From: Verrucomicrobiota bacterium
GTDB lineage: Bacteria; Verrucomicrobiota; Verrucomicrobiia; Limisphaerales; UBA11358
Assembly: GCA_021323835.1 (NCBI GenBank)
Contig: JAJPKI010000194.1
Span: forward strand, 1 to 32,009
Direction of reading: 5' to 3'
DNA length: 32,009 bases
Below the pieces are notes generated by a model. It saw only the letters and a program-made list of their open reading frames with translations. It was not told where the DNA came from and searched no databases. Below, piece by piece: positions 18,702-32,009 of the stretch. The first letter of the stretch is position 1. Every line of letters starts with the position of its first letter. The translations under genes and the position numbers were made by a program.

Positions 18702-19091
18702 ATGAAAGGTGTCCATGAAAAACAGATTCCGGCTGTGCAAACGCGGGAAAATTTTTTACAGCCTGATTCAGAAACCGGCAAACGTGAATCCGATCGGCAA
18801 AAAGCGGCTCAAATTATCCGCGCAAAGAATGACGCCGCGACACGTCCGGTTTCGATTAACCTGACCCTTGCCAAAGCGTATTTGCTTGCTGCTGACCCAA
18901 AGTTGATGGAGCGAACCTGGTCGCTTTTGATGGAAGAATTTTGTTCCATCGGCAAAGAATCCACACGGCTGCGCCGGCGTCGGGCAATAAAAAGTTCAGT
19001 TTATGATTCCATCCGAAATAAAAAATTAATTGAGACAACTGGCGATGACCTTCGGCTTGTTCTCAAATCGGGCGGCAACTTTGAACCCTAG
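18702..19091 (+). CDS. Hypothetical protein; possible N-terminal fragment of a tyrosine integrase
   Basis: ATG at 18702 in ORF 18681..19091. The segment LTLAKAYLLAADPKLMERTWSLLMEEF...RRRRAIKSSVYDSIRNKKLIETTGDDLRLVLKSGG resembles, from memory only, the N-terminal core-binding region of PVC-type integrases. No catalytic domain follows. Its stop shares the tetranucleotide CTAG (19088-19091) with the convergent LysR gene. Confidence 0.35.
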   Translation: MKGVHEKQIPAVQTRENFLQPDSETGKRESDRQKAAQIIRAKNDAATRPVSINLTLAKAYLLAADPKLMERTWSLLMEEFCSIGKESTRLRRRRAIKSSVYDSIRNKKLIETTGDDLRLVLKSGGNFEP

Positions 19092-19990
19092 AATAAATTG
19101 GTCGCCGATTCGCACAAGCCGATGAAAGTTTCTTCCGCCAGATTCAATCGCCTGCCGCGCCAATGTAAAATTCCCCAGCGACGCTGAAGCTTTCGTCGTC
19201 CCAACGGCAGGGCCACGAGCGAGCCTTCGTCAATTTCCTTTCGCGCGACCCATTGCGCCAGAATGCTGACGCCCAATCCAAGTTTCACCAATTCCTTCGT
19301 CGCTTCCATGCTGCCGACTTCGATGACGGTATTGAGCACCATTTGCTCGCGCCGAAAATAATCTTCCACGAGTCGGAACGTGACGCTGTTTTTGCTGTAA
19401 AGAATGAAACTTTGTTTCGGAATTTCCGCGCGCTCGATGCGTTTGGATTGCGCCCATGGATGTTGCGTGCCGACGAGAAAAAATAATTCGTCTGCGAACA
19501 ACGGATGAAATTCCAATTGCGGTTCATTTCCCGGATCGAGCGAAAGCGCCAGGTCAATGCGATGCTGCAACAACGACGAAACCATGCCGCGCGTGTCGTT
19601 CGGCTCGATGCTAATCGCGTGTTCGGGAAAACTTTCTTTGAATTCGCGCAACACCGGCGGAATGATGTGCTGGCAAGCCGTCGTGCTCGCGCCCAAACGC
19701 AATCGCCCTTTTCCCCATTTCCCGAGATGCCCGAGCGACTCGCGCACGCCATTCATTTCGCGCAAAATTTTTTGCGCCGATTGCAAAAGCTGTTCGCCCG
19801 CCTGCGTCAGCGCAATTTTTTTGCCCAACCTGTTCAAAAGCAGACAGCCCACATCGCGTTCCAGCGCCTTCATCGAGTGGCTGACGCCCGATTGCGTCAG
19901 ATGAAGCTCGCGCGCTGTCTGCGTGAAACTGCCCGTGCGCGCCAAAACACAAAACGCGCGCAACTGCCTGCTGTCAATCGGTGCATTCAT
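19088..19990 (-). CDS. LysR-family transcriptional regulator (candidate nitrate-assimilation regulator)
   Basis: An internal ATG (complement of 19988-19990) of ORF 19088..20509 gives MNAPIDSRQLRAFCVLARTGSFTQTARELHLTQSGVSHSMKALERDVGCLLLNRLGKKIALTQAGEQLL. This is the canonical LysR wHTH, followed by a substrate-binding domain of about 200 aa. Divergent from the nitrate operon. Confidence 0.9.
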   Translation of the reverse strand: MNAPIDSRQLRAFCVLARTGSFTQTARELHLTQSGVSHSMKALERDVGCLLLNRLGKKIALTQAGEQLLQSAQKILREMNGVRESLGHLGKWGKGRLRLGASTTACQHIIPPVLREFKESFPEHAISIEPNDTRGMVSSLLQHRIDLALSLDPGNEPQLEFHPLFADELFFLVGTQHPWAQSKRIERAEIPKQSFILYSKNSVTFRLVEDYFRREQMVLNTVIEVGSMEATKELVKLGLGVSILAQWVARKEIDEGSLVALPLGRRKLQRRWGILHWRGRRLNLAEETFIGLCESATNLF

Positions 19991-20038
19991 ATATGAATCA
20001 AATTCATTTTTTCCATGCGCATTACGCGGAGCATTCAT
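19985..20038. promoter_or_regulatory. Divergent promoter/operator with ATTCAT/ATGAAT half-site array (LysR T-N11-A box)
   Basis: Half-sites: ATTCAT 19985-19990, ATGAAT 19993-19998, ATTCAT 20002-20007 and ATTCAT 20033-20038. ATGAATCAAATTCAT (19993-20007) is a perfect 15-bp palindrome containing T-N11-A (T19994...A20006). ATGCGCAT is a palindrome at 20015-20022. All lie in the 58-bp gap between the divergent start codons. Confidence 0.55.
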
Positions 20039-20048
20039 CGCGCCAAAA

Positions 20049-21212
20049 ATGAAACATGGCACGTTCGCCGCTAATCTTTCGCGCAGCGATGAAAATTTGC
20101 CGCGCGTGATTAAAAAAATATCCATCGCAAAAACTGCGAGTCCGCATTCCAAAAAATTGCGACTCGGTTTCGTGCCGTTGACCGATTGCGCGCCACTGGT
20201 GATGGCGCAGGAACTTGGCCTGTTCAAAAAATTCGGACTCGACGTTGTTTTGAGCCGCGAACTCGGCTGGGCGACCATCCGCGACAAAATCATCCATCGC
20301 GAACTGGACGCCGCGCACGCCGTCGCCGGAATGCCGTTCGCCGCGACGCTCGGACTTGGCTCCGTCCAATGCGATTGTCTCACCGCACTCGTTTTGAATT
20401 TGCACGGCAACGCTATCACGCTTTCAAACGATTTGTGGGAACGCGGCGTTCGCGACGGCGAGACGTTGCGGAAAGAAATTCTGAAAACGCGCCGCGAAAA
20501 AACGTTCACGTTCGGCGTCGTCTATCCGTTTTCATCGCACAATTTTCTTTTGCGCGGCTGGCTGGCGCGCGTGGGAATTATTCCCGACCGCGACGTGCGC
20601 ATCGTCGTCGTGCCGCCGCCGCAAATGGTCGCGAATCTTAAGGCCGGACATCTCGATGGCTTTTGCGTCGGCGAACCGTGGAATTCCGTCGCCGTGCAAT
20701 CGCGCGTGGGCTGGTGCATCGCCGCGAGCGCGGAATTGGATTTCGGTCATCCGGAAAAAGTTTTGATGGTTCGCGGCGAATTTGCCGGAAAACGAAACGA
20801 AGAACATCTCGCGCTCATTGCCGCGCTGCTTGAAGCGTGCGAATTTTGCGACGCGCCGGAAAATCACGAGCAGATTGTCGCCACACTCGCGCGTCGCGAA
20901 TACATCGGCGCGACGGAAGCAGCATTGCGCCGCAGTTTCAGCGGCGAATTTGATTTCGGCCACGACCTCACGCGCACCGTTCCCGATTTCACAGTTTTTC
21001 ATCGCTACGAGGCCAACGAGCCGTGCGGGAAAAAAGCCGCGTGGGTCATTCAACATTTGCGCGACAGCGGACTTTGCAAAGACGCGAACGCACTAAATTT
21101 CGCGCTCAGCAAAAAAGTTTTTCGCGCGGACATTTTTGAAAGAGCCGTTCGGCTTCACAATTCCAATCCAACTCCAAAAAATGAAACAGAAAAACAAACC
21201 GTCCTCGTCTAA
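20049..21212 (+). CDS. NrtA/NasS-like nitrate/nitrite-binding protein without signal peptide (cytoplasmic sensor candidate)
   Basis: ATG at 20049 in ORF 19923..21212. The N-terminus MKHGTFAANLSRSDENLPRVIKK has no hydrophobic or Tat signal. The core LRLGFVPLTDCAPLVMAQELGLFKKFGLDVVLSRELGWATIRDKIIHRELDAAH and VVPPPQMVANLKAGHLDGFCVGEPWN are paralogous to the next gene (NrtA) and typical of the NrtA/CmpA/NasS family. Confidence 0.85.
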   Translation: MKHGTFAANLSRSDENLPRVIKKISIAKTASPHSKKLRLGFVPLTDCAPLVMAQELGLFKKFGLDVVLSRELGWATIRDKIIHRELDAAHAVAGMPFAATLGLGSVQCDCLTALVLNLHGNAITLSNDLWERGVRDGETLRKEILKTRREKTFTFGVVYPFSSHNFLLRGWLARVGIIPDRDVRIVVVPPPQMVANLKAGHLDGFCVGEPWNSVAVQSRVGWCIAASAELDFGHPEKVLMVRGEFAGKRNEEHLALIAALLEACEFCDAPENHEQIVATLARREYIGATEAALRRSFSGEFDFGHDLTRTVPDFTVFHRYEANEPCGKKAAWVIQHLRDSGLCKDANALNFALSKKVFRADIFERAVRLHNSNPTPKNETEKQTVLV

Positions 21213-22464
21213 TTTTTCACGCCGCGATTTTCTCGGCAAAGCCGCCAAAGGCATCACGCTCACCGCGCTTTTTGCTGGATTGCCTAAATCATGGGTCGGC
21301 AGCGTTTATGCCAGCGACGCTCCGGAAACGGCCGCGCTGAATTTCGGCATGATTGCGCTGACGGATTGCTCGCCCATCGTCATCGCGCACGAAAAAGGAT
21401 TTTTCAAAAAATACGGCATCAATTCCACCGTGACGAAAGGCGCGAATTGGGCGGCCATCCGCGACAATCTTTCGAGCGGCACGATTCAAGCCACGCACAT
21501 GCTCATCGGAATGCCGATTGCAAGCACGATGGGCCTCGCCGGTTCGCCGAAGAAACCGATGATTATTCCGTGGCTGATGAATCGCAATGGCCAGGCGATT
21601 TCACTCAAGACAGAATGGAAAGGAAAAGTTGGAGCGGACCCGAAAGCCTTGATGCCGTTTGTGAAGCAAGCGCAGTCGCTCGGCGAGCCGTTGACGTTCG
21701 CGATGACATTTCCTCCGGGCACGCACGCGATGTGGATGCGCTATTACCTCGGCGCAGGCGGCATCAATCCCGACAAAGATATTTCGCTCATCGTCGTTCC
21801 GCCGGCGCAAATGGTCGCGAACATGAAGATTGGAAAAATGGACGGCTTCTGCGTTGGCGAACCGTGGGGCGCGCGCGCGATTGCCGATGGAATTGGTTTC
21901 ACTTCCGTTTCCACGCAAGACATGTGGCGCGACCATCCCGAAAAAGTTTGCGCGTTTCTTGCCGAATTTGCCGACAAAAATCCGAACACGGTCAAGGCGG
22001 TTTTGAAAGCATTGAACGAAGCGAGCGTATGGCTCGACGATTTGAACAATCGCCCGGAGCAATGCGACATCGTTTCGCGCCCGACTTACATCAATTGCGA
22101 CGCCAAGACAATTCTCGGACGGTTGCAAGGTCACTACGATTACGGCGACGGTCGCAAAATTGAAGACCCGAACTACATGATTTTCAGCAGCCGCAATTGC
22201 AATTATCCGCAGCCGAAATATGCCAAATGGTTTCTCACGCAATATCGCCGATGGGGACTTGTTCACGGCGCGCCGGATTACGACGGCATCGCGAAGCAAG
22301 TCATGCGCCCGGACATTTACGAAGAAGCGATGAAAGAAATCGGCTACACGCACGGCGGCATGAACAACGACAAGGAAACGCTGTTCGACGGCGCGACGTT
22401 CGACCCGACCGGCGATTTGGAGGCTTACGCAAAAAGTTTTGCGGTCAACAACGTGAAAGGCTGA
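21181..22464 (+). CDS. nrtA: Nitrate ABC transporter substrate-binding protein with twin-arginine signal
   Basis: ATG at 21181 gives MKQKNKPSSSNFSRRDFLGKAAKGITLTALFAGL (Tat motif SRRDFLG). NrtA-family core: LNFGMIALTDCSPIVIAHEKGFFKKYGINSTVTKGANWAAIRDNL and VVPPAQMVANMKIGKMDGFCVGEPWG. Overlaps the upstream gene by 32 nt. Confidence 0.9.
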   Translation: MKQKNKPSSSNFSRRDFLGKAAKGITLTALFAGLPKSWVGSVYASDAPETAALNFGMIALTDCSPIVIAHEKGFFKKYGINSTVTKGANWAAIRDNLSSGTIQATHMLIGMPIASTMGLAGSPKKPMIIPWLMNRNGQAISLKTEWKGKVGADPKALMPFVKQAQSLGEPLTFAMTFPPGTHAMWMRYYLGAGGINPDKDISLIVVPPAQMVANMKIGKMDGFCVGEPWGARAIADGIGFTSVSTQDMWRDHPEKVCAFLAEFADKNPNTVKAVLKALNEASVWLDDLNNRPEQCDIVSRPTYINCDAKTILGRLQGHYDYGDGRKIEDPNYMIFSSRNCNYPQPKYAKWFLTQYRRWGLVHGAPDYDGIAKQVMRPDIYEEAMKEIGYTHGGMNNDKETLFDGATFDPTGDLEAYAKSFAVNNVKG

Positions 22465-22465
22465 A

Positions 22466-23251
22466 ATGAAATCGTTCAAATTGGATTGGCTCGTGCTGCC
22501 GCTCATCGGCGCGGGAATTGTTTTGTTGCTCTGGCAAATTTCTTCCGCGACATGGGCAAAAGAATTGCCGTCGCCGCTCAAAACATGGGAGACGAGCAAA
22601 CCTTACATCGTCGAGCCGTTCGCCAAACGCGGCGAAATGGACCAGGGCATTTTGCGATTCACGTGGTATTCGCTGATTCTCGTCGCAAAAGGTTACGCGC
22701 TCGCGCTGCTCATCGGCACGCCGCTTGGATTTTTTCTTGGACTTTCAAAAACGTTCACAAAAATTTTCGACCCGATAATCCAAGTGCTTCGTCCCGTTTC
22801 GCCGCTGGCATGGCTGCCGCTCGGATTGGTTTTGTTCATGGGCGCGGGAAAAAATGCTTCCGAACTCGGCGCGCTGTTCACCATCGCCATTTGCGCGATG
22901 TGGCCGACGGTTTTGAACACCGCCGTCGGCGTGCGCGCGATTCCGCAGGATTATTTGAACGTCGCCAAAGTTTTGAAACTCTCGCGCACGAAAACACTTT
23001 TCAAAGTCCTGATTCCTGCGGCGCTGCCGTATATGTTCACGGGATTTCGTTTGAGCCTCGGCATCGCGTGGCTCGTCATCGTCGCGGCTGAAATGCTCAC
23101 GGGTCGCCCCGGCGTCGGCGGATTTCTCTGGCAGGAATACAACTCGCTCATCTACGAGCACATCATCCTTTGCATCATCACGATTGGTGTCGTGGGTTTT
23201 GTCCTCGACCGATTGATGAGCTTGGCGGAAAGCAAATTCAAAACAGCATAA
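22466..23251 (+). CDS. nrtB: Nitrate ABC transporter permease
   Basis: 261 aa with about 6 TM segments. The binding-protein-dependent transport inner-membrane signature region is AKVLKLSRTKTLFKVLIPAALPYMFTGFRLSLGIAW. The ATG lies 2 nt after the nrtA stop. Confidence 0.9.
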   Translation: MKSFKLDWLVLPLIGAGIVLLLWQISSATWAKELPSPLKTWETSKPYIVEPFAKRGEMDQGILRFTWYSLILVAKGYALALLIGTPLGFFLGLSKTFTKIFDPIIQVLRPVSPLAWLPLGLVLFMGAGKNASELGALFTIAICAMWPTVLNTAVGVRAIPQDYLNVAKVLKLSRTKTLFKVLIPAALPYMFTGFRLSLGIAWLVIVAAEMLTGRPGVGGFLWQEYNSLIYEHIILCIITIGVVGFVLDRLMSLAESKFKTA

Positions 23252-23256
23252 TTGCA

Positions 23257-24168
23257 ATGGCCTTTCTCGAATTAAAAAATGTCAGCAAAGGTTTTGGTGC
23301 GAACGGAAGTCGCGCTGAAGTTTTGCGCGACATCAATCTGCAAATCGAAAAAGGCGAATTCGTCGCCATCGTCGGATTTTCCGGCGCAGGCAAAACGACG
23401 TTGATTTCGCTGATTGCCGGTTTGCTCAAAGCCGACAGCGGAAATCTGACGCTCAACGATTTAGAAATCACCGCGCCCGGCCCTGACCGCGGAATTGTTT
23501 TCCAAAATTATTCGCTGCTGCCGTGGCTTTCGGTGTTTGAAAATATTTTTCTCGCGGTCGAAGCCGTGAATCCCAATTGGTCGCCGCAAAAGAAAAAGGA
23601 GCACGTCGAAAAATACATCGCGATAGTTAACCTCACACCCGCGCGCGACAAAAAGCCGGGCGAACTTTCCGGCGGCATGAGGCAGCGCGTTTCCGTTGCG
23701 CGCGCGCTGGCGATGAATCCGCAAATTCTTTTGCTCGACGAACCGCTTTCGGCGCTTGACGCGCTGACCCGCGCGACATTGCAGGACGAAATTTCCCGCA
23801 TTTGGTCGGAAGATAAAAAAACCGTCGTGATGATTACCAACGACCCTGACGAAGGAATTTTATTGGCCGACAGGATTATTCCATTGAGCGCCGGGCCGGG
23901 CGCGACGCTCGGGCATGCGATTCAAATTGATATTCCGCGTCCGCGCGACCGTAAAGCCATCAATCACGAGCCGCGCTTCAAGGAAATTCGCCGTGAAATC
24001 ATTGAGTATTTGCTCAATTCAAAAGGCGAGCACCACGCGACGCTGACGAAAAAATTAATTTTGCCGGACATCGAGCCGGAAGATTTGTCGCTGCCGCGCC
24101 ATGCGCTCGGCGGTCGAACAAAACCGATTCGCCGCCGCGAAGTGAAAGAAATCGAGGTGAGCGCATGA
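23257..24168 (+). CDS. nrtC: Nitrate ABC transporter ATP-binding protein
   Basis: ATG at 23257 in ORF 23170..24168. Walker [11 protein letters not shown]-loop, signature [15 protein letters not shown], Walker [13 protein letters not shown]. It lacks the NrtA-like C-terminal regulatory domain of cyanobacterial NrtC. Confidence 0.88.
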
Positions 24169-25046
24169 GCGATTATCTCGTCATAGATAATCTCACGAAG
24201 ATTTATCCGACGCCGAAAGGCGACGCAGTCATCGTCAAGGATTTCAATCTTCGAATCAAAAAAGGCGAATTCGTCTGCCTCATCGGTCATTCCGGTTGCG
24301 GCAAATCCACTGTGCTTTCGATGGTCACCGGACTAAACGAAATCACCGGCGGCGGAATTATTTTGGCCGGGAAAGAATTGGTCGGGCCGGGACCGGATCG
24401 CGGAATCGTTTTTCAATCGCCGTGTTTGTTGCCGTGGATGACGGCGTTTGAAAACGTGATGCTCGGTGTTGACCAGGTTTTTTTCACGGCGGACAAAGCC
24501 GAGCGGAAACAAATCGCGGAATATTATTTGAGTGTCGTTGGCCTTGCCGATTCGATGCACAAAAAGCCTGCGGAACTTTCTCAAGGAATGCGCCAACGCG
24601 TTGGCATTGCCCGCGCATTTGCGCTTTCGCCGAAAATGTTGCTGCTCGATGAGCCGTTCGGAATGCTCGATTCGCTCACGCGGATGGAATTGCAGCAGGT
24701 GCTCATCGAACTGTGGCGCAGAGACAAAAAAACCGCGTTGATGGTGACGCACGACGTGGACGAAGCGCTGTTTCTTGCCGACCGAATCGTTTGCATGACC
24801 AACGGGCCGGAAGCCGAAGTTGGTGAAATTCTTGAAGTGCATTTTCCGCGTCCACGCGACCGCAAAGCCGTGCTGGAGCATCCCGATTACTACAAATTGC
24901 GCGAGCATCTCATCGCGTTCCTCGAAGAGCGCGCGCACAAAAAATTGCCAAAGACGAAAATTGATTTGCCGAAGTCATCACCGCCGCAAAATCCAAACGG
25001 TTCCGCCCATCGCAAAGCTTTGAACGTTTTGCTCAATCACGCTTAA
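24165..25046 (+). CDS. nrtD: Nitrate ABC transporter ATP-binding protein (second ATPase)
   Basis: Walker [10 protein letters not shown], signature [15 protein letters not shown], Walker [13 protein letters not shown]. The start overlaps the upstream stop (ATGA). Confidence 0.88.
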
Positions 25047-25053
25047 TCAACCT

Positions 25054-26583
25054 ATGCCAAACCTAAAAACTAAATCCATGATGCCAACCTTGAAAACTCT
25101 CTCCGCCGGCGCGCTGGTGCTCGCCGCGCTCGAACAAGCCCACGCGCAATACACGCCGCCACCGCCGCCCACGCCGTTTCAGGGATTTCTCAACGAATAC
25201 TTGCGCGCGCAAAATCCCTACATGAATCAATGGGATTTTGGCGGCACCGACCGTTTGCGCTTCGAAGACAAATCCGGTTTTGCCATCCAAGGTCACACCG
25301 GCTCGGTGGATTTTCGCGACCACGGCGCGGACATGGTGAACGATTATTTTTTGAACCGTCTGCGCTTTCATGTCGGCTACACGGAAAAATGGTGGAGCGC
25401 TTACGTTGAACCGCAAAGCAGCGTGGCATTGAGCGACGAGCGCTTCGCTTACGCCAACGCACCCGCGATTCCGGGCACGGTGAAGCGAAAGGAAAACGGT
25501 CCGGAAGCCGACGCAATTGATTTGCATCAGGCGTATTTCACGCTCGGCAATCACAAAGAATTTCCGCTCTCGCTCAAAGCCGGACGGCAGGAATTGTCTT
25601 ACGGCGAAGAACGGTTGGTCGGCGCTTTCGGCTGGAACAATGTCGGACGTTCATTCGACGCGGCGAAAGTCCGCTGGCAGAATGAATTTTTCGGCGCAGA
25701 TTTTTTCACCGGCTATCCGGTAATTCCTGAAAATGGAAAATTTATTGACGTGGACAACACGCATGATTGGTTCTCGGGCATTTATGCCACGAGCACAAAG
25801 ATTCCCACGACAATTCTCGATGTTTATTTTCTTTCGCGCAACGCCGACCGCAAAGCGATTAACACTGAGCCATCGCCGCAATTTCCGCAGCCGACCGCGC
25901 GCGATATTTACACCATCGGCGGACGATTGAAATCCAAGCCCGGCGAATTGGGTAATTTTGATTATTCACTCGAGGGCGCGTATCAATTTGGCGATTTCGC
26001 CGACCCGACAAAACCGGCGCTGACCGCTCCGCGATTGAAACAGGACGCATTTATGTTTGTCGCGCAAGGCGGCTACACCTTCGCTGATTTATGGGCCACG
26101 CCGCGGCTCGGGCTTGAATATGATTATTCTTCCGGCGACGGCAATTCCGCCGACGGCATGCACGGCACGTTCGACAATTTATTTCCAACGAACCACAAAT
26201 TTTACGGCTACATGGATTTCATTTCGCTGCAAAACATTCAGGACGTTCGCGGCGAACTCACGCTCAAACCGACGACGCGTTTGAGCGTCGCGCTCGAAGG
26301 CCATGGCTTCTGGCTCGCGAATACGCACGATTATTTTTACAACGTTGCCGGTGCGCCGCGAACAACGGGCGGCGCCAGTGGTTACGGAATTCATTCCGGT
26401 TACAGTCCTTTCGTTGGAACCGAATTGGACTTGATTGCCGGTTACGCGCTCACACGCTATGCGCAAATCGAAGGCGGTTACGGCCACTTTTTTACCGGCA
26501 AATATATCCAGCAATCACTTGTCAGCGCTGGCGGCGAGCGCGACGCGGATTACGCCTATGTGCAATTTACACTTAATTTTTAG
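25054..26583 (+). CDS. Outer-membrane beta-barrel porin of the alginate-export (AlgE-like) family
   Basis: Signal peptide ends LVLAALEQAHAQ. The family-typical segment is LHQAYFTLGNHKEFPLSLKAGRQELSYGEERLVGAFGWNNVGRSFDAAKVRW. Alternating beta-strand pattern throughout. The C-terminus ends YAYVQFTLNF (terminal aromatic residue). Confidence 0.8.
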   Translation: MPNLKTKSMMPTLKTLSAGALVLAALEQAHAQYTPPPPPTPFQGFLNEYLRAQNPYMNQWDFGGTDRLRFEDKSGFAIQGHTGSVDFRDHGADMVNDYFLNRLRFHVGYTEKWWSAYVEPQSSVALSDERFAYANAPAIPGTVKRKENGPEADAIDLHQAYFTLGNHKEFPLSLKAGRQELSYGEERLVGAFGWNNVGRSFDAAKVRWQNEFFGADFFTGYPVIPENGKFIDVDNTHDWFSGIYATSTKIPTTILDVYFLSRNADRKAINTEPSPQFPQPTARDIYTIGGRLKSKPGELGNFDYSLEGAYQFGDFADPTKPALTAPRLKQDAFMFVAQGGYTFADLWATPRLGLEYDYSSGDGNSADGMHGTFDNLFPTNHKFYGYMDFISLQNIQDVRGELTLKPTTRLSVALEGHGFWLANTHDYFYNVAGAPRTTGGASGYGIHSGYSPFVGTELDLIAGYALTRYAQIEGGYGHFFTGKYIQQSLVSAGGERDADYAYVQFTLNF

Positions 26584-26651: not shown

Positions 26652-28433
26652 ATGAAAATTGAGCCGCTCATTCCTGAAACTGCGCCATTCAATGGCGAGC
26701 AACGCCTTTGGCTTAACGGCTATGTCGCCGGATTGCTCGCGGGGAAAAATTTTGTTCCGGCGAATCAAAATGGTTCGGGAAAAAATGCCGCGACGATTCC
26801 GTTGCTTATTTTATTCGGCAGCCAGACCGGCACGGCGGAAAAATTGGCGAAGCAAATTGCAAAAGAATCGAAATCCTGCGGCTGCAATTCGCGTGTCGTA
26901 GATGCCAACGAACATGCAAAAATTGATTGGAGCAAAGAAACGAATTTGCTCGTCGTCACCAGCACTTACGGCGACGGCGATATGCCGGACAATGCGCAAA
27001 ATTTTTGGGAATGGCTGCAAACCGACGCCGCAAAATCGCTCGCACATCTAAATTTTTCTGTCCTCGGGCTCGGCGATACGAATTACGAACATTTTTGTGC
27101 TGCCGGAAAGAAAATTGACGCGCGTCTGGAACAAATTGGCGCGAAACGGATTCATCCGCTCGCCGATTGCGATTTGGATTACGAAGCGAAGGCAAAAAAT
27201 TGGACGAACGATGTGTTGACTGCGTTCGCGCCGGAAAAAAATCTCACGCAAAGACGCGAAGACGCAAAAACCGTAGAAATAATAGAATCTCTTCGCGCCT
27301 CTGGGACTTTGCGTGAGGAATTTTCCAAATCAAACCCATTTCCCGCCCGTCTGCTGACAAATTACAGATTGAATTCCAATGGTTCACAAAAAGAAACGCG
27401 TCATTTCGAAATTTCACTGGAAGATTCCGGCCTGAATTACGAAGTCGGCGATGCACTCGGAATTTTCCCAAAAAATTGTCCCGAACTCGTCGCGGACATT
27501 TTGCGCGCGCTCAATTTTTCCGGTGATGAAATGGTCTCGCTAAATAACAACGGCGAAATTCCAATTCGTAAAGCGCTGAAGGAATTTTATGACATCACTA
27601 AACCGTCGCCGGAACTTTTGAAATATATCGGCGAACGAAATTCTGTTTTAGGCGAATTGCTTTTGCCGGAACGCAAGGACGATTTGAAAAAATTTCTTTG
27701 GGGACGCGAAATCATTGATTTGTTGCTCGCCACGCCCGAAGTAAAATTTTCGCCCGACGAATTTGTCGCGCTGCTGAAAAAACTCGCGCCGCGTCTTTAT
27801 TCGATTTCGTCCAGCCCAAAAACGCATGCCGGGCAAGTGCATTTGACCGTCAGCATCGTTCGCCACGAATCGCACGGACGCAAACGCAAAGGCGTCGCTT
27901 CCACTTTTCTCGCCGACCGTGCGATGGAAAATCCAATTCCAGTTTTTGTGCAAACATCATATGGGTTTCGTCTGCCCGCTAACGGTGAAACGCCAATCAT
28001 CATGGTCGGGCCTGGAACAGGTGTCGCGCCATTTCGCGCATTTTTGCATGAACGTCGCGCTGTTGGCGCGAAGGGAAAGAACTGGCTGTTCTTTGGCGAA
28101 CAGCGCGTCGCGACGGATTTTTATTATCGCGACGAACTGGAAAAAATGTTTTCCGACGCCCATCTCACAAAATTGTCCACGGCATTTTCGCGCGACCAAT
28201 CGGAAAAAATTTATGTGCAGCACCGGATGCTTGAGCACGCCACTGAATTGTGGTCATGGCTCGAAAGCGGCGCGCATTTTTACGTTTGCGGCGATGCCTC
28301 GCGCATGGCGAAGGATGTGGACGACGCGCTGCATAAAATTATTGAAACGGCGGGAAACAAAAGCGCGGACGATGCGAAAGCTTATGTCGCGAAATTGAAA
28401 TCGGAAAAGCGTTACCAACGCGACGTGTATTGA
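26652..28433 (+). CDS. Diflavin (FMN + FAD/NADPH) reductase, CysJ / cytochrome-P450-reductase-like
   Basis: Flavodoxin motif LLILFGSQTGTAEKLAKQIA. FAD motif RLYSISSSP. NADPH motifs IMVGPGTGVAPFRAF and FYVCGDASRMAKDV. C-terminal YQRDVY. An N-terminal extension of about 45 aa carries PFNGEQRLWLNGYVAGLLAG. Confidence 0.88.
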   Translation: MKIEPLIPETAPFNGEQRLWLNGYVAGLLAGKNFVPANQNGSGKNAATIPLLILFGSQTGTAEKLAKQIAKESKSCGCNSRVVDANEHAKIDWSKETNLLVVTSTYGDGDMPDNAQNFWEWLQTDAAKSLAHLNFSVLGLGDTNYEHFCAAGKKIDARLEQIGAKRIHPLADCDLDYEAKAKNWTNDVLTAFAPEKNLTQRREDAKTVEIIESLRASGTLREEFSKSNPFPARLLTNYRLNSNGSQKETRHFEISLEDSGLNYEVGDALGIFPKNCPELVADILRALNFSGDEMVSLNNNGEIPIRKALKEFYDITKPSPELLKYIGERNSVLGELLLPERKDDLKKFLWGREIIDLLLATPEVKFSPDEFVALLKKLAPRLYSISSSPKTHAGQVHLTVSIVRHESHGRKRKGVASTFLADRAMENPIPVFVQTSYGFRLPANGETPIIMVGPGTGVAPFRAFLHERRAVGAKGKNWLFFGEQRVATDFYYRDELEKMFSDAHLTKLSTAFSRDQSEKIYVQHRMLEHATELWSWLESGAHFYVCGDASRMAKDVDDALHKIIETAGNKSADDAKAYVAKLKSEKRYQRDVY

Positions 28434-28435
28434 GC

Positions 28436-30142
28436 ATGAGCAATCTTCCCATCCAACACGTCAACGGCGAGCCGCTCAATGACGAGCAGCGAAAATATCT
28501 CGAAGGATTTTTCGCCGGTCTCGCTGCGCACGGCGTTTCGTTTGGTGATGTCGACCCAATGCCGGTGACGGAAAAAAAAGTTTCGTTCGACGATTTGATT
28601 TTTGAGGAGCGCGTGAAACGCGAATTGCATCCGCTCGACGCTTACGACCAGATTCTCGAAAACGCCGCAACAAATAAAGCGCCGGACAAAGAGGAAATTT
28701 TTCGTTTCAAATGGAACGGACTTTTTTTTCTCACGCCAAATAAAGAAGCGTTCATGGCGCGATTGCGGATTCCCGGCGGCCAATTAAAAACTTTTCAACT
28801 GCGCGAATTGGCAAATGTCGCGAAAGAATTGACGAGCGGCTACGTGCAAATCACGACGCGCGCGAATTTTCAGATGCGTTTGATTCAGCCGAAAGACGCG
28901 CCGGAAGTTTTACGGCGCATTCAATCCATCGGTTTGCACACGCGCGGCGCGGGCGCGGACAACATCCGCAATCTCACGGCGAATCCGACTGCGGGAATTG
29001 ACCCGCACGAATTAATTGACGTGATGCCGTTTTGCCACGAACTCGCGCAAATCATCATCAACGACCGTTCGTATTACGATTTGCCGCGCAAGTTCAACAT
29101 CGCCTTCGACGGCGGCGGACTCATCGGCACGGTTGAAGATACGAACGACATTGGCGCGAAAGCCGTGAAAATCGGCGACGAAATTTTCTTTCGCATCGCG
29201 CTCGGCGGCGCAACCGGACACAAATCGTTCGCGCGCGACCTCGGCGTTTTGGTGAAACCGTCGGAATTGAACAAAGTGATTGCCGCGATTGTTCGCATTT
29301 ATATTGCCAACGGAAATCGCGGCGACCGAAAAAAAGCGCGGCTGAAACATTTGCTCGAAACATGGTCGCTGGAAAAATATCTCGGCGAGGTGGAAAAAAT
29401 TCTTGGCTACAAATTGCAACGCGCTCCGGCGGACTTGAAATTGGAATTTTCAGATTCAAAATTTCCGCATTCGCATCTCGGCGTTCACTCGCAAAAGCAA
29501 AAAGGCTTGAATTACATTGGCGTCGCGATGCCGGTCGGCCAAATCACGCCGAAACAAATGCTGCGCGTTGCGGAGATTGCCGACCTTTACGGTTCAGGCG
29601 AAATCCGACTGACCGTCTGGCAGAATTTTATCATTCCAAATGTTCCCGATGCTTACGTCGAAACCGTAAAAAAGGCGTTGCGCAAAATCGGTTTCGACAC
29701 GCAACAAAGTTTGTTGCGCGGCGGATTGGTCGCTTGCACGGGAAATTCATATTGCAAATTTGCGCAATCGAACACAAAACGCCACGCGCTCGAACTCGCA
29801 GATTATCTCGACAAAAAATTTTCGCTCGACGCGCCCATCAACATCCATCTCACCGGCTGCCCGAATTCTTGCGCGCAACATTACATGGGCGACATCGGTT
29901 TGCTCGGCGTGAAAGTCCGCGGCGAAGACGGCTACCACGTTTTTGTTGGCGGCGGCTTCGGGAAAAATCAGGCGGTCGGACGGCAAATTTTTTCCGGCAT
30001 CACCGTCAACGATTTGCAGCCGACGTTGGAAAAAATGTTGAAAGGTTATTTGCGGCGGCGCGAGGCGGGCGAAACATTTCAAAAATTTACGCAACGACAC
30101 GAGTTGAACACGTTGCAGGCAATTTTCACCAACGACGAATGA
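28436..30142 (+). CDS. nirA: Sirohaem/[4Fe-4S] nitrite (or sulfite) reductase haemoprotein, NirA type
   Basis: ATG at 28436. Two nitrite/sulfite-reductase repeats. Cluster/sirohaem Cys motifs are CTGNSYCKFA and TGCPNSCAQHYMGDIGLLG. The nitrite assignment comes from context within the nitrate cluster. Confidence 0.85.
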   Translation: MSNLPIQHVNGEPLNDEQRKYLEGFFAGLAAHGVSFGDVDPMPVTEKKVSFDDLIFEERVKRELHPLDAYDQILENAATNKAPDKEEIFRFKWNGLFFLTPNKEAFMARLRIPGGQLKTFQLRELANVAKELTSGYVQITTRANFQMRLIQPKDAPEVLRRIQSIGLHTRGAGADNIRNLTANPTAGIDPHELIDVMPFCHELAQIIINDRSYYDLPRKFNIAFDGGGLIGTVEDTNDIGAKAVKIGDEIFFRIALGGATGHKSFARDLGVLVKPSELNKVIAAIVRIYIANGNRGDRKKARLKHLLETWSLEKYLGEVEKILGYKLQRAPADLKLEFSDSKFPHSHLGVHSQKQKGLNYIGVAMPVGQITPKQMLRVAEIADLYGSGEIRLTVWQNFIIPNVPDAYVETVKKALRKIGFDTQQSLLRGGLVACTGNSYCKFAQSNTKRHALELADYLDKKFSLDAPINIHLTGCPNSCAQHYMGDIGLLGVKVRGEDGYHVFVGGGFGKNQAVGRQIFSGITVNDLQPTLEKMLKGYLRRREAGETFQKFTQRHELNTLQAIFTNDE

Positions 30143-31797
30143 TTGCGCCTGCCACAGAAAATTCGCGCACGTTGATTGACGAATTGCTCGTCGAGCAGCG
30201 CACGCTGACAGCGGTGGAACGCTTCTCGCAGCACCACGACCGCAACGGCCATTCAGAAAAAATTTACAGCGCGCTGATGCCGACACGTTCGCCAAATCCC
30301 GGCGAGCAATACGCGTTTCAAGTGAACCTCGACGCCTGCTCCGGTTGCAAAGCGTGCGTCGCCGGTTGCCATTCGCTGAACGGCTTGGACGAAAATGAAA
30401 CGTGGCGCGAAGTCGGATTGCTTCACGGTGTCGCGGAAGAAAAATCATTTCAGCAAACCATCACGAGCGCGTGTCATCACTGCGTTGACCCCGGCTGTCT
30501 CAACGGTTGCCCGGTGAAAGCCTACGACAAAGACCCAGCGACGGGCATCGTGCGGCATCTCGATGACCAGTGCATTGGCTGCCAGTATTGCGTAATGAAG
30601 TGTCCGTATGAAGTGCCGAAGTATTCTGAAAAACTTGGCATTGTCCGCAAGTGCGACATGTGCGTGAGCCGCCTTGCCGTCGGCGAAGCGCCCGCGTGCG
30701 TGCAATCATGTCCGAACGGCGCAATCAAAATCACATTGGTAAATCAGTCGGAAATCAGGACGCAATTTCAAAACGGTGAAGCGCAAAAAAATTTCCTCGC
30801 CGATTCTCCAAATCCAAAAATCACTTTACCGACAACGCGCTACATTTCAAAACGTCACTTGAACGGAACTATTTTTGCCGCCGACCGCGACGTGCCGCGA
30901 TTGGACAATCCGCATTGGCCGTTAATTTTCATGCTGGTTTTTACTCAAGCGGCGGCTGGAATGTTCTTGGCAGCGGCAATCGCGCAAAATCTCGAAACAA
31001 AATTTTTGGAACTCGCGGCGTTTGTAATTTTGAATTTCGGACTGCTCGCCGCGCCGTTGCATCTGGGCAAACCGCTGAAAGCGTGGCGCGCATTTCTGGG
31101 TTGGCGCACAAGTTGGTTGAGTCGCGAAATTATCGCTTTCAACACGTTTGCTCCGCTGGCCGCCGCCGCGACTGCGCTTGCGTGGTTGCCATTTCTCGCA
31201 GAAAAATTTCCGAGACTCGGTGATTTGCTTCAAAAAATTCCGGCAGCATTTTTACCGCTCGAAAAATTTCAGTTGCCGTTGGCGATTTTCGCCGCCGCGA
31301 TTGGCCTGTGTTGCGTTTTCATTTCCGCCATGGTTTATGTGGACACCAAACGCCCATTCTGGTCACAACGACATTCCTTCGGTGCATTTTTTGGGACGAC
31401 GCTCCTGCTCGGCGCGACATTTTCAGCCGCGACCTTTGCATGGCTCGGCAATTTGCATTTTGCGCGGCAATTCGCTGTTGTCGCGCTCGTCGTTCGCGCA
31501 ATGCTTTTCGTCTGGCGGCGATTGGAAATTCGTTTCGCTTTCAGTAATCCGGCAAGTCCGATCCATTTGAACGCCCGCGCCATTCGCGAATTGCTTCCAT
31601 GGACGCCGCGGACGCGAATAATTTTATTTATCGCTTCCACAGTTTTCGGTTTGCTCGCCATTGCGGACATTGCAAATGCGGTGATGATTTGGGCCAGTGC
31701 GACCGTAGTAACAACTTTCATTTCAGAAATTGTCGTCCGCTACGTTTTCTTCCGCGCCGGCGCGGGCAAAAAAATGCCCGGAGGAATTGCCGCGTGA
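30139..31797 (+). CDS. Fusion protein: DmsB-like four-cluster 4Fe-4S ferredoxin domain + DmsC/NrfD-like polytopic membrane anchor
   Basis: The ATG at 30139 overlaps the nirA stop (ATGA). Cys groups: CSGCKACVAGC, CHHCVDPGCLNGCP, CIGCQYCVMKCP and CDMCVSRLAVGEAPACVQSCP. About 8 TM helices follow, including the DmsC-like LHLGKPLKAWRAFLGWRTSWLSREI. No signal or Tat motif at the N-terminus (MIAPATENSRTLIDELL). Confidence 0.85.
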   Translation: MIAPATENSRTLIDELLVEQRTLTAVERFSQHHDRNGHSEKIYSALMPTRSPNPGEQYAFQVNLDACSGCKACVAGCHSLNGLDENETWREVGLLHGVAEEKSFQQTITSACHHCVDPGCLNGCPVKAYDKDPATGIVRHLDDQCIGCQYCVMKCPYEVPKYSEKLGIVRKCDMCVSRLAVGEAPACVQSCPNGAIKITLVNQSEIRTQFQNGEAQKNFLADSPNPKITLPTTRYISKRHLNGTIFAADRDVPRLDNPHWPLIFMLVFTQAAAGMFLAAAIAQNLETKFLELAAFVILNFGLLAAPLHLGKPLKAWRAFLGWRTSWLSREIIAFNTFAPLAAAATALAWLPFLAEKFPRLGDLLQKIPAAFLPLEKFQLPLAIFAAAIGLCCVFISAMVYVDTKRPFWSQRHSFGAFFGTTLLLGATFSAATFAWLGNLHFARQFAVVALVVRAMLFVWRRLEIRFAFSNPASPIHLNARAIRELLPWTPRTRIILFIASTVFGLLAIADIANAVMIWASATVVTTFISEIVVRYVFFRAGAGKKMPGGIAA

Positions 31798-32009
31798 AAT
31801 TAAATTTTCCAAAGCCGACTTTGCGCGAATGGCACGGGCCGTTAACGGAAGATTTGGTTTTGCATCCGGGTGATTTCGGCCTCGGAAAAATTCCCGCGCG
31901 TTTGAAACCCGATGCGACGACGACGATGACCTGCGGTTTTTGTTCGACTGGCTGTGGTATGAAAATTCATTTAAAAAACGGCGAAGCCATCAATTTGAGC
32001 GCAGATGAA
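31794..32009 (+). CDS. Molybdopterin (bis-MGD) oxidoreductase, N-terminal fragment; candidate nitrate reductase catalytic subunit (continues beyond window)
   Basis: Not in the ORF track because it is open-ended. The GTG at 31794 overlaps the upstream stop (GTGA). Translation: MKLNFPKPTLREWHGPLTEDLVLHPGDFGLGKIPARLKPDATTTMTCGFCSTGCGMKIHLKNGEAINLSADE. CGFCSTGCG is the C-x2-C-x3-C start of the molybdopterin-oxidoreductase 4Fe-4S domain. An alternative ATG lies at 31926. No RR motif is present. Confidence 0.75.
   Translation, partial: MKLNFPKPTLREWHGPLTEDLVLHPGDFGLGKIPARLKPDATTTMTCGFCSTGCGMKIHLKNGEAINLSADE

Follow-up and report, generated by a model that had tools for sequence, protein, structure and literature searches.

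The DNA studied here (the window) is the whole of contig JAJPKI010000194.1, 32,009 nucleotides long, of the Verrucomicrobiota bacterium assembly GCA_021323835.1 (Limisphaerales, UBA11358). Two adjacent genes at its 3' end, on the forward strand, encode a fusion of a ferredoxin domain with a membrane anchor (the fusion protein; 30139-31797, 552 residues) and a molybdenum-bis-pyranopterin guanine dinucleotide (Mo-bisPGD) catalytic subunit (the Mo subunit; 31794-32009), and they are discussed here as a probable quinol-linked nitrate reductase of the cytoplasmic side. The ATG start codon of the fusion gene overlaps the stop codon of a nirA-like gene (28430-30142) in the sequence ATGA, and the Mo open reading frame (ORF) starts with the GTG at 31794, which overlaps the stop codon of the fusion gene (GTGA), and leaves the window after 72 residues, where the contig ends. 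Together with a cysJ-like gene (26652-28433), these genes form a chain of overlapping or abutting stop and start codons. An earlier, sequence-only reading of the window had noted this chaining of four genes from 26652 onwards, as well as the overlap at 31794 of a gene that opens with a C-x2-C-x3-C motif, and both are seen in the ORFs. Searching for exact copies of the fusion protein gave no longer contig; the native Mo subunit is thus represented by the 72-residue fragment, and the full-length Mo sequences discussed below come from homologous loci.

The fusion protein consists of a family-specific N-terminal extension, a four-cluster ferredoxin domain of the DmsB type, a linker and an anchor of the DmsC/NrfD type with eight transmembrane (TM) helices. 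The extension (residues 1-55; 30139-30303) is hydrophilic and conserved (TLIDELLxEQRxLTAVERF...), having no signal peptide, RR motif or TM segment. The iron-sulfur (FeS) domain (30304-30783) is matched by Pfam Fer4_11 at residues 109-198 (79 bits), and the best NCBIfam match of the fusion protein is DmsB (residues 57-202). The 16 cysteines of the four [4Fe-4S] groups (C67/70/73/77, C112/115/120/124, C145/148/151/155 and C172/175/187/191) are all present; they are invariant in 110 fusion homologues and are also kept in 15 divergent family sequences, down to 31% identity of the anchor. The top matches of the FeS module are DmsB, FdnH and PsrB. When the PDB is searched with the sequence of the fusion protein, the top match is FdnH (1kqf_B), and only FeS-subunit matches are obtained, with no solved homologue of DmsC.

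The anchor domain (30913-31758) is recognized by Pfam DmsC (PF04976; residues 258-538, 51.8 bits versus a cut-off of 22.3), and hydropathy analysis places its TM helices at residues 261-281, 289-307, 331-352, 378-399, 414-435, 441-460, 490-510 and 514-535, with no hydrophobic segment before residue 260. Profile alignment with hhalign relates the anchor to Escherichia coli DmsC with 97.7% probability over 255 columns. The AlphaFold2 model of the fusion protein has a mean predicted local distance difference test score of 81.9, rising above 90 across the TM domain, which adopts the NrfD fold. A Foldseek comparison of this domain with known structures retrieves PsrC and the ActC subunit of alternative complex III (TM-score 0.64 on the target), and the FeS part of the model matches FdnH. 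By Pfam, hhalign and Foldseek, this is the heme-free NrfD/DmsC-type anchor with eight TM helices of the complex iron-sulfur molybdoenzymes (CISM), with predicted quinol binding, and the ferredoxin module with its 16 cysteines is likewise the four-cluster module of this family. The domains, the cysteines and the helices thus agree with the sequence-only reading, in which a DmsB-like ferredoxin fused to a DmsC-like anchor of about eight helices had been described.

The predicted quinol site (31060-31128) is the TM2-TM3 loop with its amphipathic helix, H308 LGKPLKAWRAFLGWRTS325WLSRE330, which is predicted to be at the cytoplasmic face. The quinone-site residues of DmsC are S62, H65, S82 and E87 (PMC8076601). 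In the hhalign alignment, H65 and E87 correspond to H308 and E330, respectively, and S82 corresponds to S325 by register. H308, S325 and E330 are invariant in the 110 fusion homologues, and the motif HLG[RKQ]P...SW[LM]SRE is kept in the 15 divergent members, again down to 31% anchor identity. In cultured Limisphaera, menaquinone-7 is the sole quinone (PMC13608581). The conservation of these residues strongly suggests that quinol is the electron donor of the enzyme formed by the fusion protein and the Mo subunit.

The side of the membrane on which the FeS domain resides has been assessed from export signals and from charge distribution. A Tat-like (twin-arginine translocation) N-terminus is found in none of the 110 fusion proteins (the maximum 13-residue hydropathy is 1.42), and an RR motif followed by a hydrophobic region (h-region) occurs in none of 67 full-length Mo subunits. 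The loops on the FeS side of the anchor contain on average 15.2 Lys and Arg residues (minimum 11), as compared with 2.3 (maximum 6) on the opposite side, when all 110 fusions are considered, and the bias has the same sign in each of them; read by the positive-inside rule, this puts the FeS domain on the cytoplasmic side. In E. coli DmsC, of which the N-terminus and the quinol loop are periplasmic, the 13 Lys/Arg residues are split 5 versus 8, the other way round. The inverted charge bias, together with the lack of a Tat signal, suggests a cytoplasmic location for the FeS domain and hence also for the Mo subunit; the predicted orientation of the anchor is inverted relative to E. coli DmsC. The organism itself uses a canonical Tat motif, as shown by the NrtA-like nitrate-binding protein of the same operon (ORF 21136-22464, forward strand), which carries a textbook twin-arginine signal, SRRDFLGKAAKG, with the motif SRRDFLGKAA. 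When read from its probable start (ATG 21181), this signal, SRRDFLGKAAKGITLTALFAGLP, serves as a positive control within the operon.

All 67 full-length Mo subunits have a hydrophilic extension of 40-50 residues before the FS0 motif, [LF]LR[QR]WxGPLT...FGLGxVPxRLxPDATT, which in the window spans 31794-31931. The window extension has 46 residues before the first cysteine of the motif, a count that corrects the 44 given in the sequence-only reading, whose observation of missing twin-arginine signals holds for the window pair and throughout the family, as does its placement of the catalytic module on the cytoplasmic side, as judged by the positive-inside rule. An RR pair is found in this extension in eight of the 67 homologues. 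A stretch in the Mo subunit of locus L003, IPRRLHPD, was considered as a cryptic Tat signal and rejected, being 10 residues from the Cys motif and lacking an h-region. The extension is absent from the Cetobacterium, NasA and NasC references discussed below; it might serve as a docking arm, or it may be the remnant of a Tat or chaperone-binding peptide like that of NarG. If it is a remnant of this kind, it could record the flip of a periplasmic enzyme to the cytoplasmic side.

The fragment of the Mo subunit in the window contains the FS0 motif, C47-x2-C50-x3-C54, and is matched by Pfam Molybdop_Fe4S4 with 22.8 bits, barely above the cut-off of 22.7; it is 93% and 80% identical to its homologues in loci L001 and L003, respectively. 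The full-length homologues have 725-824 residues, with Molybdop_Fe4S4, Molybdopterin and Molydop_binding domains, so that the window fragment and the syntenic homologues have the features of a Mo-bisPGD subunit of the CISM family with an N-terminal FS0 motif. The highest NCBIfam scores of these subunits are for Fdh-alpha (482-496 bits, cut-off 666), NasA_Halo (456-467, cut-off 1000) and NasC (409-429, cut-off 1100), followed by the NapA models (310-339, cut-offs 904-931), and dmsA_ynfE scores 126-136 bits (cut-off 778). As all these families score below their cut-offs, the Mo subunit is named here from its active-site motifs and its position in a tree.

The motif TRQCM[AS][TS][AS] is found in all 67 full-length subunits and resembles that of NasA, NasC and NapA (R-[LH]-C-M-[AS]-S). 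A Cys followed by Met is thus present where FdhH has U-H, FdsA has C-H and the ForC-like references have C-Q. In the alignment to Desulfovibrio desulfuricans NapA, residues C140, M141 and M308 are identical, aligning with C205, M206 and M361, and the Arg is one column off R354; a Cys ligand in R-x-C-M-[AS] together with NapA/Nas pocket residues is the active site expected of an assimilatory nitrate reductase. In a bootstrapped neighbour-joining tree with 12 references from plasmid and E. coli records, the anchor-associated Mo subunits are monophyletic (100%) and are sister (100%) to WP_185892582 of Cetobacterium somerae, to which they are 44% identical. The gene of this protein is followed by genes for a 4Fe-4S dicluster protein and a FAD oxidoreductase, in an operon that we take to encode a cytoplasmic nitrate reductase of the clostridial type (NarABC). 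The next join is with the proteobacterial NasA/NasC (56% support; 32-33% identity), and NapA (including the E. coli and Azospirillum enzymes), the formate dehydrogenases (FDHs) and DmsA, the outgroup at 23.6% identity, are outside.

Several other identities were considered for the Mo subunit. A formate dehydrogenase is rejected on account of the Cys-Met motif of all 67 sequences, which replaces Sec/Cys-His or C-Q. An assignment to NapA is rejected because of the missing Tat signal, scores below the cut-offs and a position outside NapA in the tree, and membership of the DmsA clade because dmsA_ynfE is below its cut-off and DmsA is the outgroup. No SoeA family is present among the 25 NCBIfam matches of the Mo subunit, and SoeA is absent from the tree references. 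The sequence-only reading had proposed a nitrate-type enzyme, and the motif and the tree, which groups the family with cytoplasmic nitrate reductases, are in agreement with this. Two of the plasmid references, labelled 'fdhF', from Pantoea (L090, 212-3672) and Cytobacillus (L091, 221-3663), have the C-Q motif and a DUF1641 neighbour, which identifies them as the menaquinone-linked ForCE type and not as classical FdhF.

The fusion protein is found in at least 589 species genomes, when one genome per species is scanned, mostly of Verrucomicrobiota and Planctomycetota. The best 80 of these carriers are nearly all Verrucomicrobiota. Cultured bacteria among them are Oceaniferula spumae (NT6N), Rubritalea profundi (SAORIC-165), Cerasicoccus and Verrucomicrobium sp. 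BvORR034, and a metagenome-assembled genome (MAG) of Pedosphaera parvula and Schlesneria (Planctomycetota) are included as well. Relatives number thousands, and the 120 best of them, down to 49% identity, all have both PF13247 and PF04976; they occur in MAGs of Limisphaerales and Verrucomicrobiae under the NCBI name "DmsC/YnfH family molybdoenzyme membrane anchor subunit", and many fusion proteins are labelled 'formate dehydrogenase iron-sulfur subunit' by JGI. Searched on its own, the anchor domain hits 1,703 clusters at 50% identity, 638 of them at E <= 1e-10. Proteins of 520-600 residues that are matched from about residue 250 are frequent among the clusters, which suggests that those proteins are also fusions.

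In 67 of the 70 loci with 2.3 kb or more of downstream sequence, the Mo gene directly follows the fusion gene, and in most of them its start overlaps the preceding stop codon by 4 bp, as in the window. When the 49 loci with at least 8 kb on either side are considered, the Mo gene is present in all, NirA in 41, CysJ in 38, NrtC and NrtD in 33-34, a porin in 23, and MobA and MOSC in 15 each. Members at 52-62% identity have the same operon. Other members are much more distant, with anchors that are 31-32% identical: in L100 (5155-11770), nrtABCD is divergent from nirB-nirD-fusion-Mo, which is followed by genes of molybdenum cofactor (Moco) biosynthesis, and in L098 (6582-11870) and L099 the order is major facilitator superfamily (MFS) transporter-fusion-Mo. 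The fusion/Mo pair is also present without NirA or CysJ. The pair is thus the constant nitrate-reductase slot of these assimilation operons, and the nitrite reductase partner is interchangeable, since the pair stays the same beside NirA/CysJ, NirBD or a transporter alone. A survey of how often the fusion adjoins nirA and nrt genes had been proposed in the sequence-only reading, and this context is found to extend across the family, including its distant members. In locus L078 (11981-17056), two tandem Mo paralogues, about 65% identical to the L003 subunit, follow one fusion gene, which may be a duplication or an assembly artefact.

In the window, the genes upstream of the fusion gene complete an operon for nitrate uptake and nitrite reduction. 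The nirA-like gene (28430-30142, forward strand) encodes a NirA-family reductase with sirohaem and a [4Fe-4S] cluster (NCBIfam PRK09567, 720.8 bits, cut-off 523; Pfam NIR_SIR and NIR_SIR_ferr), and the cysJ-like gene (26652-28433, forward strand) encodes a diflavin NADPH reductase (Flavodoxin_1, FAD_binding_1 and NAD_binding_1; PRK06214, 502 bits, cut-off 432). We infer that the NirA-family protein is the assimilatory nitrite reductase of the operon and that the CysJ-like reductase is its electron donor. These two proteins have in common a short N-terminal motif, PxNxEQRxxLxGxxAGLxA (26685-26741 and 28472-28528, respectively; 11 of 19 residues identical, E = 8e-07), which may help the two to dock or oligomerise as an NADPH nitrite reductase of the CysJI kind. 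Further upstream on the same strand lies a nitrate ATP-binding cassette (ABC) importer (21136-25046), consisting of the NrtA-like binding protein (Pfam NMT1_2), the permease NrtB (TIGR01183, 224 bits versus a cut-off of 209 in NCBIfam) and the two ATPases NrtC and NrtD (TIGR01184, 293 and 325 bits, cut-off 292). With an adjoining nitrate transporter and assimilatory nitrite reductase, and with its predicted cytoplasmic location, the Mo subunit has the setting of an assimilatory Nas enzyme.

Between nrtD and cysJ, within the operon, an outer-membrane porin of the Alginate_exp type is encoded (25054-26583, forward strand; PF13372, 211.9 bits). An AlgE-like beta-barrel of this sort recurs at 23 of the 49 related loci, and it may be a porin dedicated to nitrate/nitrite in the Planctomycetes-Verrucomicrobia-Chlamydiae (PVC) bacteria. 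Upstream of the importer, a gene for a LysR-type regulator (about 19088-19990, reverse strand; Pfam HTH_1 and LysR_substrate) is divergent from the gene of a second NrtA-like protein (ORF 19923-21212, forward strand; NMT1_2). This pair is also found in locus L003 and probably has a role in the regulation or sensing of the cluster, in which a NasS-like role, sensing nitrate/nitrite in the cytoplasm, is conceivable for the second NrtA paralogue. The remainder of the contig (59-18552) has the gene content usual for a verrucomicrobium that degrades polysaccharides, with genes for a histidine kinase, for a response regulator of the LuxR type, for Ricin-B and fn3 proteins, for a PATR-repeat protein of 1345 residues and a prepilin-type N-methylation protein, and for two glycoside hydrolases, one GH95 (fucosidase-like) and one GH2.

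Taken together, the architecture, the pairing, the gene context, the missing export signals, the charge-bias topology, the active-site motif and the conservation of the quinol-site residues, all computed from sequence, suggest that the fusion protein and the Mo subunit are probably a two-polypeptide, membrane-bound, cytoplasm-facing quinol:nitrate oxidoreductase for assimilation. In this enzyme, (mena)quinol would be oxidised at the DmsC-type site (H308, S325 and E330) in the cytoplasmic TM2-TM3 loop of the inverted anchor, and the four [4Fe-4S] clusters of the ferredoxin domain would relay the electrons to FS0 and on to the Cys-ligated Mo-bisPGD site of the Nas/Nap type, where nitrate would be reduced to nitrite. 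Nitrate would be imported by NrtABCD, having crossed the outer membrane probably via the porin of the operon, and NirA, with the CysJ-like NADPH reductase as its donor, would convert the nitrite to ammonium. We infer nitrate as the substrate, quinol as the donor and an electron flow from the latter to the former that is not coupled to the proton motive force: the protons of quinol would be released on the cytoplasmic side, where those for nitrate reduction would also be consumed, which would make this step non-electrogenic, as expected for an assimilatory enzyme.

A number of points weigh against this proposal. The case is drawn from sequence analysis. The properties of the native Mo subunit, a 72-residue fragment, are transferred from homologues, the neighbouring fusion proteins of which are 68-81% identical to that of the window. 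The Mo subunits reach no NCBIfam equivalog cut-off, the curated NasA and NasC equivalogs included, and their best match among solved structures is the monomeric NapA of D. desulfuricans (E = 2e-103), a periplasmic enzyme, followed by cytoplasmic FDHs. The tree has few references, among which cyanobacterial NarB, the NasC of Bacillus subtilis and the NapA of D. desulfuricans are missing, and NasA/NasC are joined with a support of only 56%. E. coli DmsC is the sole control for the charge bias and has itself a modest bias (5 versus 8). The conserved His, Ser and Glu may be structural rather than quinol-binding. Ferredoxin-type Nas enzymes are tuned to low-potential donors, and it is not guaranteed that a Nas-type site can be driven by menaquinol.

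It is also conceivable, although unlikely, that the anchor is a tether or scaffold and that the electrons come from NADPH via the CysJ-like reductase, or from a soluble ferredoxin or flavodoxin, and not from quinol. This would fit the position of the CysJ-like gene, two genes upstream of the fusion gene and translationally chained to it, and the presence of CysJ in 38 of the 49 well-covered loci; diflavin-reductase-driven assimilatory nitrate reductases also exist in actinobacteria (NasN). However, CysJ never occurs without NirA (both are present in 38 loci, NirA alone in three, neither in eight and CysJ alone in none), whereas 11 of the 49 loci have the fusion/Mo pair but no CysJ, and the pair is also found beside NirBD or only a transporter. 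CysJ thus tracks NirA and not the fusion/Mo pair, which makes it a less likely donor to the fusion protein, and as an obligatory donor it is rejected by the loci without CysJ and by L100, where the pair stands beside NirBD. A mere tether, moreover, needs no NrfD fold of eight TM helices with invariant quinol-site residues. Of the two electron sources left open in the sequence-only reading, the quinol pool is therefore retained as the probable one, on account of the DmsC-type residues, and the connection to the CysJ-like reductase becomes the less likely alternative.

A quinol:nitrate oxidoreductase of this kind might instead be mainly dissimilatory, serving as an electron sink or in the respiration of nitrate, while energy would be conserved earlier in the chain, at NADH dehydrogenase. 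Feeding a membrane-bound nitrate reductase with quinol is indeed a respiratory design, eight of the 49 loci have the pair without a nearby nitrite reductase, and some Limisphaera strains respire nitrate (PMC13608581). The same study assigns this respiration to NarGHI homologues, and NarB and NirA to assimilation; the pair is mostly located within, and translationally coupled to, an operon for uptake and nitrite-to-ammonium reduction, and the predicted same-side proton chemistry would yield no energy at the nitrate step. A mainly dissimilatory role is considered improbable.

There is a still smaller chance that the Mo subunit is not a nitrate reductase but a formate or other dehydrogenase that feeds quinone, or a reductase of chlorate, selenate or a sulfur compound. 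Its Cys-Met pair in place of the Sec/Cys-His of FDHs, the conserved NapA pocket residues and the position of the family as sister to a nitrate-reductase-like enzyme, outside the FDHs, all disagree with such an assignment, as does its co-location with nitrate ABC or MFS transporters, with two unrelated types of nitrite reductase and with MobA/Moco genes. What can be cited for it is that Fdh-alpha is the top NCBIfam score, where no equivalog cut-off is reached, that the JGI label of many fusions names a formate dehydrogenase, and that the NirA family includes sulfite reductases as well as nitrite reductases. Least credible of all is a periplasm-facing respiratory reductase like DmsABC or PsrABC, exported by a cryptic or hitchhiking route, since, although the DmsB and DmsC families are classically periplasm-facing (PMC8076601) and the signal-less DmsB of E. 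coli hitchhikes on DmsA, there is neither an RR motif with h-region in the catalytic subunits nor a signal or extra N-terminal TM segment in the fusions, the charge bias of the FeS side is cytoplasmic throughout, nitrate uptake by the operon leads into the cytoplasm, which is also where nitrite is reduced, and the catalytic subunit belongs with Nas rather than with DmsA.

The proposed quinol:nitrate oxidoreductase can be compared with several known systems. E. coli DmsABC also has a 16-cysteine DmsB FeS protein and a homologous anchor, and its residues H65, S82 and E87 are kept in the fusion protein. In DmsABC, however, DmsA has a Tat signal, the DmsAB module is periplasmic, and B and C are separate proteins, whereas the present system has B and C in one chain, the opposite charge bias, no Tat signal and a catalytic subunit of the Nas type. 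The SoeABC complexes of Allochromatium vinosum and Aquifex aeolicus likewise combine a Mo-bisPGD subunit, a four-cluster FeS protein and an NrfD-like anchor without Tat signals. SoeC is expected to be inverted, and for SoeABC a cytoplasm-facing complex has been proposed, the quinone site of which is at the N-side (PMC8076601), an arrangement to which the present system corresponds, its orientation being read solely from the charge bias. SoeABC differs in having a catalytic subunit of the SoeA/Sre-like clade and three polypeptides, and in oxidising sulfite while reducing quinone; the Mo subunit studied here is Nas-like by motif and tree, and the anchor belongs to Pfam DmsC.

Membrane quinol oxidation, a four-cluster FeS protein and cytoplasmic nitrate reduction are features that the proposed enzyme has in common with NarGHI. 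NarG, however, belongs to a distant clade with an Asp-ligated Mo, and NarI, a dihaem cytochrome b, has its site of quinol oxidation on the periplasmic side, which makes NarGHI electrogenic. Here, the anchor is haem-free with a predicted quinol site at the cytoplasmic face, and NarH scores 44 bits (NCBIfam). ForCE of Bacillus subtilis is similar to the proposed enzyme in that a cytoplasmic enzyme of the FDH/Nas super-clade is wired to menaquinone through a non-canonical partner (PMC8808070), which in that case is the DUF1641 protein ForE and not an NrfD-like anchor; its motif is C-Q and its substrate is formate.

The catalytic subunit itself is most similar to cytoplasmic nitrate reductases. 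NasA, NasC and NarB have the same Cys-ligated Mo-bisPGD site, FS0 and R-x-C-M-[AS] motif, and the same operon partners (nitrate transporter, nitrite reductase and MobA). To our knowledge, the known NasA, NasC and NarB enzymes are soluble and are fed by ferredoxin, flavodoxin or NAD(P)H modules, whereas the present Mo subunits have a membrane-anchored partner, fused to the anchor and encoded directly upstream in the 67 of 70 loci mentioned above, as well as the N-terminal extension. The C. somerae enzyme is the closest catalytic subunit outside the family and also has no signal peptide and an adjoining FeS partner, but this is a small soluble ferredoxin-like protein, accompanied by a flavoprotein that implies a pyridine-nucleotide donor, and neither a membrane anchor nor the N-terminal extension is present. 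Overall, the system resembles NarGHI in mechanism, DmsABC/PsrABC in construction, SoeABC in orientation, and the Nas enzymes in catalytic ancestry and operon context, and it lacks defining features of each of the DmsABC, SoeABC, NarGHI and Nas families.

According to Wells et al. 2020, no member of the FDH/Nas/Aio/Nap clade is tied to canonical four-cluster or anchor subunits (PMC7331816), a rule on the Nas/Nap/Aio clade that would be broken by the occurrence of a Nas-type Mo subunit with an anchor of the CISM family. No case of this kind is listed in the Wells et al. 2023 survey or in the NrfD review (PMC8076601), and the Limisphaera genome paper of 2026 draws plain NarB and NirA (PMC13608581). 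No published description of the fusion/Mo architecture was found by full-text searching of a literature collection in which most subscription journals are not covered. The modules are known, and it is their combination and orientation, for a new physiological role, that are new.

The family is common, as it comprises at least 589 species-representative genomes and about 1,700 clusters at 50% identity, and the Verrucomicrobiota and Planctomycetota that carry it abound in soils, lakes and oceans. Surveys of the nitrogen cycle that are based on genomes label the Mo subunit NarB or NasA and overlook its membrane partner (for example, PMC13608581). It is slightly more likely than not that the PVC bacteria (Verrucomicrobiota, Planctomycetota and some others) have a third, hitherto unrecognised class of assimilatory nitrate reductase, a cytoplasm-facing and haem-free CISM in which a Nas-type Mo subunit is combined with a DmsB-DmsC fusion and an inverted anchor, using menaquinol. 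If the enzyme is indeed quinol-dependent, it would add to SoeABC a second case of an NrfD-type anchor in inverted orientation, and it would provide a natural single-chain FeS-anchor module for studies of electron transfer from quinol to clusters. As several carriers are in culture, the hypothesis is directly testable. For the organisms, it would mean that any respiratory dehydrogenase can pay for nitrate assimilation, which would then compete with the terminal oxidases for quinol, and that the reductant cost of nitrate assimilation and its regulation by oxygen and redox state would have to be modelled differently.

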